Source of the DNA: Promethearchaeia archaeon
GTDB lineage: Archaea > Asgardarchaeota > Lokiarchaeia > Sigyniarchaeales > SOKP01
DNA: 64,000 nucleotides
Reading direction: 5' to 3'
NCBI GenBank assembly: GCA_029856125.1
Contig: JAHQWJ010000080.1
Coordinates: 32,001 to 96,000 of the forward strand
Shown: positions 4,801 through 39,836 of the stretch, one piece after another
Layout: each line of letters starts with the position of its first letter
How positions within the stretch are numbered: position 1 is the first letter of the stretch
Notes under the pieces: generated by a model
The model's database searches: none
Seen by the model: only the letters and a program-made list of their open reading frames with translations
What the model was told of the DNA's origin: nothing
Program-made: the position numbers and the translations under genes

Positions 4801-6354
4801 CTTTTCTATCCTATCGGAGTTCATCTTAATCTCTGTAGTTAGTGACGATAACATAGATTTGAAATCTGCAGACTTTGAATTAAGATTGTTCTTATCTTCT
4901 TGTAGGGTTACGATAATTTTCTCTAGATCTTGTTGATTTTCGTTCTCTTTTGAGATTTTTATATTTAAGTCATTAATTTCTTTTCTTGTTGCTTCAGCCT
5001 CACTCTTTGTATTAGCTATTGCATCTTCAATGCTTTCTGATTCTCCTTTTAATTTGCTAAGATCCAGTTCTAATTTCTGTTTTTTTTCTTCGTTTTTTTT
5101 AATATTCTTTTTCAGAATTTTAATTTGAGCTTTATTCGATGAAATACTTTGCTTTATAACGGAGATTTCTCCATTAAATCCTGTTTTTCCATCGTTTTGT
5201 TCTTTAATTTTTGCGTCAATGTCAGCTTGTTTTTGGTGTTTACTTTCTATTTCTGCTTTTGATGCTTCAATTTGACTTTCTGTATCTGCTACAACTTTCA
5301 TTTCTGATTCAATTAAAGAATCAAATGTTTGGCCTTCATCAAGAACCATCTGCAATTTTTCCAAAGTATTAATTTCTTGAGAAATTTTTTCAATTGACTT
5401 ATTTGCGAGGGTTAAAGACGTTTTATTTGAAGATTGTTGCGTTTTAAGTTGAGTGATTTTTTCAGTGATGATTTCTCTTTCTTTTTCTTTTTCAGTTATG
5501 TTTTTTTGTATATTTTCCATAACTAATGATTCTTGTTTTAAAATATCATCTTGTCTTGTTAATTTTTCTTTTAATTCTTCTAAGATTGTATTAGATTCTT
5601 CAATACTTTTTTCTAGATCATTTTCTTCCTTCCTTAATTTCTCTATCTTTAATGCTATCAATTGAGCGTTGTATAAGTCGATTTGTTCATCTAACTCTTT
5701 CCATGCCAAAGCATCATTCTTTTCTTTTTCTACTTTTTTTAATTGAGAGGAAACTTCTTTGAAAATTGCTTCAAATTGGCCTAGATCTCTTTCAGCCTTT
5801 TCTAGTTCCTTCATAGTTCCATCCTTCATTTCATCGTATTTCTGTAGGCCAATAAGATCTTCTATAAATATTCTGCGTGCTACCGGATTCATGTGAGTTA
5901 ATTCTACGATTTTCCCTTGTAGAACGAATTGATTACTTCCATCAGGATCTACATTTGCAGCTGCAAGAGCATTAAGAATCTGAGTTCTAGTAGATTTTTT
6001 GCCGTTCATTTTATATCCTCCGCCCCCTCCTCGTTGAATTGTTCGAGTAACTTCGAATGTTTCTGTTCCACCTGGGAAAATTTCCTCTGAGTTATCGAAA
6101 TATAATGTGACCGAAGCTCTGTTTGAAGGGTTTTTACCTCGGGATCCCGCAAAAATCAAATCTTCAAGACTCTTAGCTCTCATAGTTTTTTTGCTCAGTC
6201 TACCTAAAGCAAATGTTAAAGCGTCAATAATGTTAGATTTTCCTGCGCCGTTAGGGCCTACTATACAAGTAAATCCGCTCGAAAGCCTAAGAGTAACAGT
6301 TCTGTCACCGAATGATTTAAATCCGGTCATAGAAATTTTTTTGATGTAGGTCAA
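1885..6354 (-). CDS. smc: SMC ATPase, 1489 aa, elongated arms, no canonical hinge
   Basis: GFKSF, Walker A GPNGAGKSN, R-loop MRAKSL, Q-loop VLQG, PVNLKAI, signature LSGGEKT, Walker B/D-loop IMDEIDAALD, H-loop ISHR; first gene of the smc-scpA-scpB operon. Confidence 0.96.
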   Translation of the reverse strand: MTYIKKISMTGFKSFGDRTVTLRLSSGFTCIVGPNGAGKSNIIDALTFALGRLSKKTMRAKSLEDLIFAGSRGKNPSNRASVTLYFDNSEEIFPGGTETFEVTRTIQRGGGGGYKMNGKKSTRTQILNALAAANVDPDGSNQFVLQGKIVELTHMNPVARRIFIEDLIGLQKYDEMKDGTMKELEKAERDLGQFEAIFKEVSSQLKKVEKEKNDALAWKELDEQIDLYNAQLIALKIEKLRKEENDLEKSIEESNTILEELKEKLTRQDDILKQESLVMENIQKNITEKEKEREIITEKITQLKTQQSSNKTSLTLANKSIEKISQEINTLEKLQMVLDEGQTFDSLIESEMKVVADTESQIEASKAEIESKHQKQADIDAKIKEQNDGKTGFNGEISVIKQSISSNKAQIKILKKNIKKNEEKKQKLELDLSKLKGESESIEDAIANTKSEAEATRKEINDLNIKISKENENQQDLEKIIVTLQEDKNNLNSKSADFKSMLSSLTTEIKMNSDRIEKLNVDKIKTEEKIKELSKGKDTEEALKELLREKDTLTNELNSYRQQLKDEDSIYRKNEQELELLLMKQDSIESEINDNRTKIDNINTRLNLLKKESTNLEREKQDLELKSSTLNANLTKNSSESEGLNKRKDNIQRRIGELTTEKNNLLAKIENTEKEYERNTEDITGILQILNMLTQNINISVESIKSNIQQSNAEAIETSGVNFKQFVLDIIDIMKTVEDVSSEAEAEAEQKSEVAEMSETLKSILQTLTLFTENVDTTIDQLIDSVKESADVEIQQSTSTFDSFVQDLMEILENVYLSLRKLTMSKSQEQYKQLEEITENIASQTLDLNQIEKDLTRINTQEKHDSDDLSVTNKRLEEVNKRITELVGKIEKSEAEVKQRNTVIGEKQKENFNEEINNVKQLKEDYWDKVSTIKKNIEIKQQGLDDLHKKLQELQGIQNFYEKIIDIENNIQELNSNIENKKNIIINTEENITNLNLEQEALTVKIDSQILEKNKFWENTEKLRTHIGNQNKKLESTMDNLRALENVMMVINSIEELTKENLEANANIKQCAQDMEGFNTQVDEVQKKVNEIQLVIDALREDKNKELEAQKKVQKELNKFNKDLQKIQAKLNELNKNKEREQKIISLNQDIKETEKQIELIVKDIENIETDLKQEEDKKNVKQEEINKQIQGKDISWQKQKNYQKLINDLRSDLSMENAKLNNFESKKIITTDQIETFYQRSKDYGALPVVTDELSESGLQSDISTATNKKKALEPVNLKAITQYDTIKERFDEIDMRRQTIQRERKAILDAIEKIELEKTRTFMKAYHEINREFARIFQKLSPGGSAKMILDRPDKPFEGGCSIEARPRGKRISSLEILSGGEKTLVALSFIFAVQEFYPAPFYIMDEIDAALDGPNVHRVSMVIKEFARQAQFLVISHREENIVNADRIYGVSMQQSGITDIFSVDLEEEAKRLLELPDVPPTIEEN

Positions 6355-9544: not shown

Positions 9545-10705
9545 TTGAAACCAATTGTCGCATTATCTTATTTTCATCGAAAGATTGGTCCACTAGTGTT
9601 TTATTCATATCCTGAAAATATGCTAGGTGAACAACTTTCAACGAGAATAGCGAATATAATGGATCAAACAGTAAGCGAAGGATTTTTTACTCATTCTTTT
9701 GAACAAAATATCTCAAACAACTATTATTTTGAAATTCATTCTGATTGGGCTCGTGGAAATAAGGAAATGTTAATGGTCTCTATAATTTTTGATCAACAAA
9801 TAAATTTGGAAATAGAGCAAAATGTAAACATCTTATGCACTGAATTTCTTGAAAAATTGCTCTCTAATGAGGAAATTTTCACTGCGTTTTATGTAAATGA
9901 TATAAATAATTTTGAGGAACAAGACAAAGACCTTATCTATAAAAACAATTCTTTAATAAAATTATGGGTTAAGGAATTATATTGGGCAGCACTTGAAGAT
10001 ACAAGAGAAAAAAGCGAGGAAGAGAAGATTGCCACATTATTAAATAAAAGACATGTTTTTTTAATGTTAAAGAAACTTTCAAAAGGCCCAATTGCTTTAG
10101 ATGGATTAAGAGAATGGTATAACACCGCGTTTCCAAAATTAGATTTTAAAGAGTTAATCGACACTTTAGTCTCCAAACAGTTTATTTTCATAAATCAAAT
10201 TGGGATTGTAGAAAAGTACGTGTTATTATTGAAGGAAGTTAATGCTGAAAGAATACCCCCCGATAGCGTAATTGAATATATTGATGAAAATCCCGATTTA
10301 ATTGAACTTGAACTAATTGAATTATTACTTCCAAAAGTACAAGAGTATTTTAGTATTTATGAAAATAAAAATCAAAAAGAATTGGAGGAAGATACATTCG
10401 CTTTATTTCAAATTGTTTCTGATCCAAAAAAATACAATCTGCTATCAGAATTAAGAAATGGGCTAATTTCAAAAGATAAATTACCAAAATTAGTCTCAAA
10501 AAGAGCACTTGACCACCTCAACTCTTCATTGTCCTTCCTAAAAAAATATGATGTAATTGAAGAATTAAAATATAAAGACGAACGATATATTTTTTTAAAA
10601 ACTGATATTCAGATCAGTACGGCCTTTCCCGAGTATTTGAGAAAATCGTTGCCTCAGGAATCTAAGCCAGTAATTGCAAAAAAGTATAAACCAAAAGGAG
10701 ATTAG
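9545..10705 (+). CDS. Longin/uDENN-like domain protein with probable C-terminal winged helices
   Basis: N-terminus VALSYFHRKIGPLVFYSYP matches the uDENN/NPR2-type FHxxxGP start; two later segments have a wHTH-like pattern. Confidence 0.6.
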   Translation: MKPIVALSYFHRKIGPLVFYSYPENMLGEQLSTRIANIMDQTVSEGFFTHSFEQNISNNYYFEIHSDWARGNKEMLMVSIIFDQQINLEIEQNVNILCTEFLEKLLSNEEIFTAFYVNDINNFEEQDKDLIYKNNSLIKLWVKELYWAALEDTREKSEEEKIATLLNKRHVFLMLKKLSKGPIALDGLREWYNTAFPKLDFKELIDTLVSKQFIFINQIGIVEKYVLLLKEVNAERIPPDSVIEYIDENPDLIELELIELLLPKVQEYFSIYENKNQKELEEDTFALFQIVSDPKKYNLLSELRNGLISKDKLPKLVSKRALDHLNSSLSFLKKYDVIEELKYKDERYIFLKTDIQISTAFPEYLRKSLPQESKPVIAKKYKPKGD

Positions 10706-19199: not shown

Positions 19200-19607
19200 T
19201 TGGAGTTTGGTACAGACCTTGGAATTGGGCCCGATGAAATCGAAAAAATAAGTCCTCAAATTACTTTTATCACTTCAAACGCGGATATTGAAGCTATCGC
19301 TCTTGTGAGCTTGGAAGGTTATCAGATCGCTTTTTCAGCCCTTCCACAATATCAAGTTGACGGAGATCAGTTTTGTGGGCTAGCAAGTGCATTATTAATG
19401 ACTGGAAGTTCAACAATTAAAACACTATTTCAAGAAGATTTAAGTGAAATAATTGTGAGAGCTGAGAATGGTTATGTAATTGTAAGCAACGCAGGGCGTC
19501 TAGTAATCGTGTGTGCAGGAACGCTCATTGATACATTGATGAAAACTGTTAAAGTAATGAGGGTTGCTGCAAAGAATTTAGCTATGATTTTTGAACAAAA
19601 ACAATAA
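19200..19607 (+). CDS. Roadblock/LC7 domain protein
   Basis: IEAIALVSLEGYQI...GLASALL...EIIVRAENGYVIV; TTG start 6 nt after GGTGA. Confidence 0.9.
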   Translation: MEFGTDLGIGPDEIEKISPQITFITSNADIEAIALVSLEGYQIAFSALPQYQVDGDQFCGLASALLMTGSSTIKTLFQEDLSEIIVRAENGYVIVSNAGRLVIVCAGTLIDTLMKTVKVMRVAAKNLAMIFEQKQ

Positions 19608-19657
19608 AATCTGATTTTTTATTGAAGAATAAGTTTATAATGCTTCAAAAATACTTC

Positions 19658-19665
19658 TATAAATA
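19658..19665 (+). promoter_or_regulatory. Putative TATA box of the trpB2 leader transcript
   Basis: TATAAATA begins 29 nt upstream of the leader-peptide ATG (19687), the spacing expected for a leaderless transcript; an alternative TTTATAA lies at 19634. Confidence 0.5.
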
Positions 19666-19686
19666 TACATTTTATGGTTAAAATCG

Positions 19687-19758
19687 ATGTTTACTAAAAT
19701 AAACCTCCTTAAATGTTGGCATGGACTATGGCGTTTTAAAACGCTCTTTCAACGGTAA
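19687..19758 (+). CDS. Putative tryptophan leader peptide MFTKINLLKCWHGLWRFKTLFQR (23 aa)
   Basis: Two in-frame TGG codons (19717, 19729) in a uORF ending 151 nt upstream of trpB2, overlapped by alternative hairpins and followed by U-tracts. Confidence 0.65.
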   Translation: MFTKINLLKCWHGLWRFKTLFQR

Positions 19759-19909
19759 AACCATAAATTTTGCTCTGACTACTTTTTAACATCATTTTTT
19801 AATAACAAGCATTGCACCTGCAATCAAGCATTATTATTATTGATTTCCAATTTTAAGATGAGACATCATTTAAATTTGATGATGAAAAAATAGTAAAAAG
19901 GAAATAAGT

Positions 19910-21310
19910 ATGACAGATTTTTATAATACAAGAATTTTACTTGAACCAAATGAAATACCAAAGGAGTGGGTTAATATCGTACCAGATTTACCTGCTCCCA
20001 TGACGCCCTTAATAAATCCCATGGATGGGAAACCTGCACCTCCTGAGCTTGCATTTGCGATATTTCCAAAGGAATGTGTACTTCAGGAAGTCTCTCAAGA
20101 ACCTACAATTCAAATTCCTAAGGAATTAAGGGAGCTTTATGTTAGATCTTATCGGCCAACACCGCTTCATAGAGCATATGGTTTAGAGAAAGAACTTGGA
20201 ATTGAAGGTGAAGATATCAAAATTTTCTATAAAAATGAATCGGTTTCTCCCACTGGATCTCACAAACCAAACACAGCTCTAGCTCAAGCTTACTATTCTA
20301 AAAGAGACGGGGTCGATGAATTGATAACCGAAACAGGAGCGGGTCAATGGGGTTCTGCTTTATCTTACGGCTGTAATTTGTTTGACATTAAGTGTACTGT
20401 TTACATGGTGAGAGCTAGCTTTATCCAAAAACCAGGAAGAAAAATACTGATGAGAGCTTTTAATGGTCAAGTTCATGCAAGCCCTTCAAAATTGACAGAC
20501 TCTGGAAAATATTATTATGAACAAGACCCAGATCATCCAGGAAGTTTAGGAATTGCTATATCTGAAGCGGTTGAACATAGTATGAGAAGTGAGAAGTCGA
20601 GATATTCTTTAGGTAGCGTTGTGAATTTCGTTCTTTTACATCAAACTATCATAGGACAAGAGGTTAAAGCACAACTACAAAAAGTTAACGCTAAACCTGA
20701 TGTTCTGGTTGGATGTATGGGAGGAGGGTCTAATTTAGGAGGTCTAATGATTCCTTTCGCGAAAGATAAATTAGATGGAAAATATCCTGATTTAGAGATC
20801 GTGGGAGTAGAACCCAGAGCTTGCCCAAGTGTCAACAAAGGAGAATATAGATGGGACTACGGAGATTCTGCTAAAAAAGCTCCAATTTTAAAAATGTATA
20901 CATTAGGCCATAATTTTATTCCAAGCCCAATTCATTCAGGAGGATTACGATATCATGGAATGGCTCCAATAATTTCGATATTGGCGAAAAAGAAAATAAT
21001 GTCCTCAGTCATGCATCACCAAACTGAAGTTATTGGATCAGGTTTACTTTTTGCGAAAACAGAAGGGATTCTGCCTGCGCCTGAAGCCGCCCACGCAATA
21101 AAAGAAGCGATTGATCAAGCGTTAAGAGCAAAAGAAAACTCCGAAAAGAAAACAATCGTTTTCTGCTTAAGTGGACACGGATTTTTTGATTTATTAGCAT
21201 ATAAGGAATATATGGTTGGTAATTTAGTAGATTACGAACTACCAAATGTTGAGATTCAAAAGGCTTTAAGCGCGCCAGATATGCCTAGTATTGACGAAAC
21301 TCGGTTTTAA
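19910..21310 (+). CDS. trpB2: Tryptophan synthase beta chain, TrpB2 type
   Basis: IPKEWVNIVPDLP, YRPTPL, PLP-lysine SPTGSHKPN, TETGAGQWG, GCMGGGSN, IHSGGLRYHG, PAPEAAHA, LSGHG. Confidence 0.97.
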   Translation: MTDFYNTRILLEPNEIPKEWVNIVPDLPAPMTPLINPMDGKPAPPELAFAIFPKECVLQEVSQEPTIQIPKELRELYVRSYRPTPLHRAYGLEKELGIEGEDIKIFYKNESVSPTGSHKPNTALAQAYYSKRDGVDELITETGAGQWGSALSYGCNLFDIKCTVYMVRASFIQKPGRKILMRAFNGQVHASPSKLTDSGKYYYEQDPDHPGSLGIAISEAVEHSMRSEKSRYSLGSVVNFVLLHQTIIGQEVKAQLQKVNAKPDVLVGCMGGGSNLGGLMIPFAKDKLDGKYPDLEIVGVEPRACPSVNKGEYRWDYGDSAKKAPILKMYTLGHNFIPSPIHSGGLRYHGMAPIISILAKKKIMSSVMHHQTEVIGSGLLFAKTEGILPAPEAAHAIKEAIDQALRAKENSEKKTIVFCLSGHGFFDLLAYKEYMVGNLVDYELPNVEIQKALSAPDMPSIDETRF

Positions 21311-39762: not shown

Positions 39763-39836
39763 TGGGAAAGGGGGGCTTCGAACCCCCGACCTCACGGTTA
39801 TCAGCCGTGCGCTATACCAGGCTAAGCCACTCTCCC
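39763..39836 (-). tRNA. tRNA-Ile(GAT), intronless
   Basis: GGGAGAG TG GCTT AGCCTGGTA TAGC G CACGG CTGATAA CCGTG AGGTC GGGGG TTCGAAG CCCCC CTTTCCC A. Confidence 0.97.

Follow-up and report, generated by a model that had tools for sequence, protein, structure and literature searches.

The leader described here lies in a window of 64,000 nucleotides (the whole stretch of DNA that was analysed) from a Lokiarchaeia genome, directly in front of trpB2, a gene whose closest relatives are labelled Promethearchaeota (= Lokiarchaeia). A tblastn search of the genome, whose assembly is 99% complete, did not find trpD, C, F, B1, A or E; trpB2 is the sole gene of the Trp pathway detected and therefore the sole detected route to Trp, which we take to be, probably, the salvage of indole. 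Directly 5′ of the leader, as in most loci of the family, stands a Roadblock/LC7-like gene (window 19200-19607; called by eye, with no NCBIfam match), whose terminator may be a U6 tract at 19615-20. A tRNA-Ile(GAT) gene occupies positions 39763-39836 of the window, on the minus strand.

The region between the Roadblock/LC7-like gene and trpB2 contains a short upstream open reading frame (uORF) for a putative leader peptide, followed by a spacer of 151 nt that separates its stop codon from the trpB2 start and holds three tracts of at least four U (Table 1). All the features on which the preliminary description had drawn, i.e., the uORF and its two in-frame TGG codons, the hairpins at 19731-19744, 19811-19824 and 19864-19881, the U-tracts, an overlapping frame and a TATA-like word, are present in the DNA at their positions. 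Considered alone, the locus makes a weak case, because uORFs with at least two Trp in 8 codons lie upstream of 17 of the 850 genes of this genome (2%) and because the leader folds no better than shuffled sequences (z = -0.67). An Rfam scan of the leader, covering Trp_leader and other leader or T-box models, returned nothing near the gathering score.

Table 1. Features of the trpB2 leader and its gene, in window coordinates
Feature	Position	Strand	Remarks
Conserved TATA-like box, purine-rich BRE-like stretch just 5′	19634-19641	+	Motif peaks 55-65 nt 5′ of the uORF start in 98 leaders
Helix P0	5′ arm (5′UTR) 19671-19679; 3′ arm 19759-19767	+	9 bp, -9.4 kcal/mol; 3′ arm directly after the stop codon
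Helix Pa	19684-19719	+	Start-codon region 19684-93 with 19710-19, including the first Trp codon; MFE fold
Leader peptide uORF, 23 aa	19687-19758	+	Trp at codon 11 (19717) and codon 15 (19729); two-Trp read-through variant of the W-Q-W-P-W-R-x-stop family
Hairpin P1	19730-19745	+	Over the last Trp-Arg codons; -5.6 kcal/mol
CANNGG motif	19750-19755	+	In 90/98 leaders; also in a distant Asgard lineage
U-tract region	19768-19800	+	U4 at 19768, U5 at 19783, U6 at 19795; candidate aCPSF1/FttA termination signal
Small hairpin P3 (subclade)	19811-19824	+	16/110 loci, all in the window's genus
Hairpin P4 (family-wide)	19828-19865	+	Conserved 5-nt loop (19843-47) and 3-nt bulge (19861-63)
Hairpin P5 (subclade)	19864-19881	+	7/110 loci; overlaps the P4 base
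Weak Shine-Dalgarno-like site of trpB2	19898-19902	+	Complementary to the 3′ tail of the genome's 16S rRNA
trpB2, stand-alone tryptophan synthase beta-2	19910-21310	+	PRK12391 and TIGR01415 matches over cut-off

The comparison with relatives was based on the regions 5′ of trpB2 at 110 loci of the Lokiarchaeia family containing this genome; the genomes compared are kin and not independent samples, and no p-value is claimed. At 98 of these loci a Trp-rich uORF is found in the same place, with its start 195-258 nt 5′ of trpB2 in nearly all 98 leaders. These frames measure 12-28 codons, begin with ATG in 90 of the 98, carry from 2 to 6 Trp codons (four in 47 leaders) and typically end in W-Q-W-P-W-R-x-stop. 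The strict test, i.e., at least 2 Trp in 8 codons, is passed by 90 of the 110 trpB2 loci and by none of 30 leuA loci, which places the leader above chance; the in-frame TGG count (371:21) is partly circular, as the reading frames were picked for Trp. Moreover, every trpDCFBA(EG) operon having upstream DNA (18/18) is headed by a Trp leader, whose RNA motifs are for the most part those found at trpB2; about 100 relatives thus carry the leader ahead of Trp genes, so that the search among relatives proposed in the preliminary description found conserved Trp-codon uORFs before both trpB2 and the trp operons. The leader has been kept at 89 of the 90 trpB2 loci in genomes without a detected trpB1, but at only 9 of the 19 where trpB1 is present. 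Outside the family, other Lokiarchaeia families show a Trp-ended uORF 5′ of trpB2 at 18 of their 23 usable loci, and the remainder of the phylum does so at about 9 of the 26 that were sampled; a phylum-wide search with the DNA pattern W-Q/H-W-x-W was too loose to be informative, since it also matches ordinary coding sequence.

Some loci depart from this common plan. One trp operon (L121, genome G130) carries a second Trp leader inside the operon, directly 5′ of trpE (oriented coordinates 10523-10603); the long stem downstream of it is a different one, and leaders of this type are also present in L117, L119, L126 and L127. Between the Trp leader and trpD, an unannotated open reading frame of about 70-85 codons with a conserved G-P-E-K motif was observed in L111-L113, L121, L125, L129 and L130. 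Furthermore, one contig (G094 C50) bears two copies of trpB2 (L044 and L048), each with its own Trp leader, and the two leaders resemble different lineages. Of two closed genomes, G272 (6.0 Mb) shows a W-P-W-H leader 5′ of trpB2, and in G269 (4.4 Mb) the 800 nt preceding the gene yielded no leader. Finally, the leaders L018, L021 and L022 have lost the uORF yet display P4, and L022 also retains a decayed P1 3′ arm together with the CANNGG motif.

The codons of these leaders correspond to the pathway of the gene that follows. Among the top matches of a genome-wide scan were two uORFs with Leu codons, a poly-Leu one 5′ of leuA and a Leu-rich one 5′ of a leucyl-tRNA synthetase gene, and both are conserved (leuA, 30/30 loci; leuS, 8/8 loci), each with a hairpin within a few bases on its 3′ side; the preliminary description had suggested looking for uORFs with cognate codons before other biosynthetic genes. 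In the cross-controls, Trp leaders were found before none of the 30 leuA loci and Leu leaders before none of the 110 trpB2 loci. That codon and pathway agree at four types of gene is, as read from the sequences, the strongest argument for a sensor read by the ribosome, and we regard the Trp-leader family as very likely a translated Trp sensor. Conservation and amino-acid specificity lend strong support to the core of the earlier proposal, namely that a Trp-codon uORF controls trpB2. Cognate-codon leaders are not universal, since no His leader is seen before the his operon of this genome; no leader is seen before its two aspartate kinase genes either.

The leuA leader (G000:C140, minus strand, ~6129-6231; L131, L191) consists of a 32-codon uORF that ends in a Leu run 90 nt 5′ of leuA-leuC-leuD, with a G+C-rich hairpin directly 3′ of it. 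The Leu-rich uORF before the leucyl-tRNA synthetase gene (G000:C126:25752-25847; L281, L282) is followed by a 3′ hairpin whose loop has a conserved U/C tract. With a strict cut-off, no more than 8 of 41 genomes gave a close match to the synthetase behind this leader, and the family may therefore hold two LeuRS types.

Regarding the promoter, the preliminary description had assigned this role to the TATA word at 19658-19665. The word exists, but four of its eight sites vary among six close species and it would put the start site on the uORF AUG, so that it was rejected. The conserved TATA-like box lies further upstream, at 19634-41, a call that rests on a histogram of motif positions; the difference in TATA counts (97/98 vs 16/98) was obtained with unequal patterns and windows. 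From the usual archaeal spacing, transcription is predicted to start near 19664, leaving a 5′UTR of about 23 nt. Among the assembled RNA contigs of relatives, none spans the leader, which counts neither for nor against the prediction.

The preliminary description had also suggested a test for covarying stems. The leader RNA would be able to form several helices, three of which (P0, P1 and P4) show compensatory changes in the family; no covarying antiterminator was found among them. P0 has compensatory cores (GGTTT/AAACC vs GATTT/AAATC) and its arms pair better with their own partner than with swapped ones (-5.0 vs -2.9 kcal/mol); some 47% of leaders have it, and one genus largely lacks it. A Pa-like helix emerges in family averages, with an energy of -5 kcal/mol or below in 79% of leaders; covariation of its individual pairs was not shown. 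For P1, whose loop holds the stop codon in most relatives, G-C, A-U, C-G and U-A all occur at one pair, and own arms pair better than swapped ones in 57 of 61 cases, a partly circular count given that the anchors were chosen by pairing. A conserved RNA hairpin overlapping the regulatory codons is found, then, in P1 with its compensatory pairs, with Pa and P0 in addition.

On the 3′ side of the leader, the two hairpins named in the preliminary description (P3 and P5) do exist but are not family-wide, and the family-wide one, P4, was missing from it. The P4 pattern was recovered in 89 of 129 leaders; its one free pair is A-U in 63, G-C in 8, U-A in 4 and a wobble in 7, and its own arms reach -6.9 kcal/mol vs -5.0 for swapped ones, the base being weakened in this copy. 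Two other identities considered for P4 were dropped by eye: a bulge-helix-bulge splicing motif, as the central helix exceeds 4 bp, and a mimic of the tRNA-Trp anticodon, as there is no anticodon stem.

The search for alternative pairings was less productive. The helix that had been proposed to compete for the second Trp codon (19727-38/19756-65; 5 bp, -5.3 kcal/mol) is unconserved and is outcompeted by P0, with which it shares its 3′ strand; 19759-67 has its conserved partner in the 5′UTR and not in the Trp codon, and the proposal was rejected. Candidate pairings for a mutually exclusive antiterminator lack covariation except in one genus, and that between the P1 3′ arm and the P4 5′ arm does not covary. 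For CANNGG, no covarying partner was found among the start codon, the Gln-Trp codons and the P4 loop; its pairing with the P4 loop, possible in many leaders, is no better with own than with swapped partners (36/68). Global mutual information on the MAFFT alignment was dominated by phylogeny.

How the signal would be passed on to trpB2 is a distinct problem. The sensor is clear but the switch is not, because no bacterial-type terminator, covarying antiterminator or anti-Shine-Dalgarno element was found. Indeed, the interval 19560-19960 contains no site of the bacterial type (a G+C-rich hairpin followed by a U-run), and the U-tracts lie 5′ of P4. At least two U4 tracts occur in the U-rich region of 82 of the 98 leaders, with a U content of 0.55-0.57 vs about 0.3 in the flanks. 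The factor aCPSF1/FttA, a homolog of eukaryotic CPSF73, is encoded in the genome (a profile match over the cut-off). Archaeal termination at U-tracts needs no hairpin, and Lokiarchaeal aCPSF1 cooperates with such tracts (PMC8716108); moreover, it has been hypothesized in print that the ribosome and aCPSF1 exclude each other at Spt4/5 (PMC8116511, PMC13681488).

With these elements, we lean, if only just, to a leader that acts as a ribosome-read Trp gauge controlling premature termination. We infer a course of events that runs from the start site and uORF translation, through stalling and a relay step, to termination. Transcription would begin at the predicted start near 19664 and a ribosome would translate the uORF. 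When Trp-tRNA is ample, the ribosome would complete the uORF and depart, upon which the 5′ domain (P0, Pa, P1) would fold, concealing the start of the uORF as well, and the U-tracts, left untranslated in the spacer, would be open to aCPSF1/FttA or to U-tract termination before trpB2. When Trp-tRNA is scarce, the ribosome would stall at the Trp codons and hold P1 and Pa open; either by its remaining coupled to RNA polymerase or by a refolding of the freed strand, termination would be avoided and trpB2, the indole salvage gene, would be made.

Several observations count against termination as the output. About 40 nt separate the last Trp codon from the beginning of the U-tracts, more than the footprint of a ribosome covers, and AT-rich intergenic DNA commonly contains U-runs. 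Furthermore, equilibrium folding with a modelled ribosome leaves the pairing of the U-tracts and of P4 unchanged, and P4 persists at loci that lost the uORF. We put termination before trpB2, weighed by itself as the output, at about an even chance or marginally above it.

The same Trp sensor might act instead on translation, with stalling in, or completion of, the uORF altering ribosome access or re-initiation at the trpB2 start, an output that we judge unlikely. P4 in this copy and the hairpin of the leuA leaders end 25-45 nt before the start codon with no U-run behind, and inspection of the sequence of this copy indicates that the P4 loop is complementary to the Shine-Dalgarno region. Nevertheless, in a family-wide scan for anti-Shine-Dalgarno elements no 14-nt window of a leader paired better with its own Shine-Dalgarno site than with swapped ones, and about 150 nt separate the uORF stop from the trpB2 start. 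In two 1.4-Mb Asgard genomes, the distant leaders L265 and L266 are short Trp leaders that keep CANNGG, have no P4 and contain a CCTCT word complementary to the GGAGG ribosome-binding site, which hints at a translational output there.

Somewhat less credible again is an output in which the completed transcript is cleaved or decays, or in which a protein would act as the switch on P4 or CANNGG. Sequence conservation without covarying partners, as is often the case for protein-binding sites, characterizes the P4 loop, the 3-nt bulge of P4 and CANNGG, and aCPSF1 is itself a ribonuclease. However, no protein of this kind has been identified, and cleavage and termination are coupled in archaea (PMC13675443), so that cleavage may not be a separate route.

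The copy in the window belongs to a six-species clade (support 97/96) that shares the two-Trp read-through variant. In this clade the middle Trp codon has been altered and the P1 loop is two bases shorter, with the consequence that the early stop was lost and the frame extended to 23 codons. The losses of the middle Trp codon and of the early stop, a weakened P4 base, and a match between CANNGG and the P4 loop that is nearly gone (-1.4 kcal/mol) would fit a decaying relic with little or no regulation, in a family whose sensor is real, and L022 exemplifies decayed remnants in other lineages. In spite of this, we consider such an end state improbable. In all six species the ATG, P0 and P1 have been retained and both Trp codons stay in frame, and the leader varies at 30 of 200 sites (15%), as against 57 of 160 fourfold sites of trpB2 (36%), which is why the copy looks reduced yet still under selection; over 19750-67, a single site in 18 varies. 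Similar read-through variants recur in other lineages, and E. coli trpL works with two Trp codons. We hold, with good though not full confidence, that the two-Trp copy still works, and the variant suggests that the third Trp codon and the position of the stop are dispensable, those elements kept being the start, two Trp codons, P0 and P1. The preliminary description had also counted, as a third TGG (19722, out of frame with the 23-codon uORF), the Trp codon of an overlapping 8-aa frame, MLAWTMAF, from 19713; the frame exists, but its Trp occurs in only 2 of the 6 close species and was rejected as a functional element, being incidental.

Lastly, it is most improbable that the region is a DNA operator for a TrpY- or Tar-like factor, or that the peptide itself is the product, with incidental Trp codons, since, even if the archaeal trp control so far known relies on DNA-binding regulators (PMC6737238) and the top of P4 is palindromic, the frame is kept through length changes, Leu replaces Trp as the cognate residue in front of leu genes, G-U wobbles among the variants of P4 speak for a role as RNA and the N-terminus of the peptide varies freely.

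Returning to the leader as a gauge of termination, a broader reading would be that Asgard archaea possess a general system of cognate-codon leaders in which the stalled ribosome controls aCPSF1/FttA, with no RNA architecture shared with bacterial attenuators; we advance it tentatively, at slightly worse than even chances. If true, archaea would have a form of transcription attenuation that is mediated by the ribosome and founded on a terminator of the cleavage type. If the leaders act through termination, they need coupling between ribosome and polymerase, for which direct archaeal evidence is scarce (PMC13681488), and they would constitute a natural, mutable reporter for the competition between ribosome and aCPSF1 at Spt4/5. 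A paper from 2021 states that no mechanisms of transcription attenuation or antitermination are known in archaea (PMC8448881), and in the open-access literature we found no later archaeal report, and none for Asgard archaea.

The closest formal likeness is with the enterobacterial attenuators (E. coli trpL, leuL, hisL and pheL; Rfam Trp_leader and Leu_leader), which also combine a short uORF, cognate codons near its end, a structured leader with a hairpin over the regulatory codons and the stop, and biosynthesis and synthetase genes downstream. Unlike them, the Asgard leader has no G+C-rich hairpin with a U-run, no Rfam match and no covarying 2:3 antiterminator; its Trp codons alternate (W-x-W-x-W), its U-tracts come before the last hairpin and its promoter is of the archaeal TATA type. 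It resembles trpL-type attenuators at the sensing step but is not filed as a member of the class, because no terminator of their type was found.

A second likeness is with E. coli tnaC and the Rho-dependent ribosome-controlled attenuators, where a long untranslated spacer between uORF and gene allows a factor to load unless a stalled ribosome prevents it; the spacer found here is likewise long and untranslated and contains tracts on which a termination factor could load, and the factor is encoded. With TnaC, it is free Trp that causes the stall, at the stop codon of the leader peptide, and the operon turned on is a degradative one. The Asgard leader differs from tnaC in having multiple cognate codons before biosynthetic genes, with aCPSF1/FttA and not Rho as the candidate factor.

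Among archaea, Xie and Reeve reportedly proposed in 2005 a two-codon Met-Trp uORF in the trpY leader of Methanothermobacter, which concerns a regulator gene and not a conserved leader family. TrpY of Methanothermobacter thermautotrophicus and Tar/TK0271 of Thermococcus kodakarensis likewise provide Trp-responsive control of archaeal trp genes, but they are DNA-binding proteins acting at initiation (PMC6737238). The Leu leaders, in turn, resemble, at the level of what is described for them, the Leu- and Cys-rich leader frames of actinobacteria (the LEU element and the mycobacterial polycysteine uORFs), which are bacterial and where, according to those descriptions, a run of cognate codons up to the stop is followed by structure and no classical terminator. 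Seen beside these systems, the leader very probably lets the ribosome gauge the supply of Trp, a bacterial style of control in archaea.
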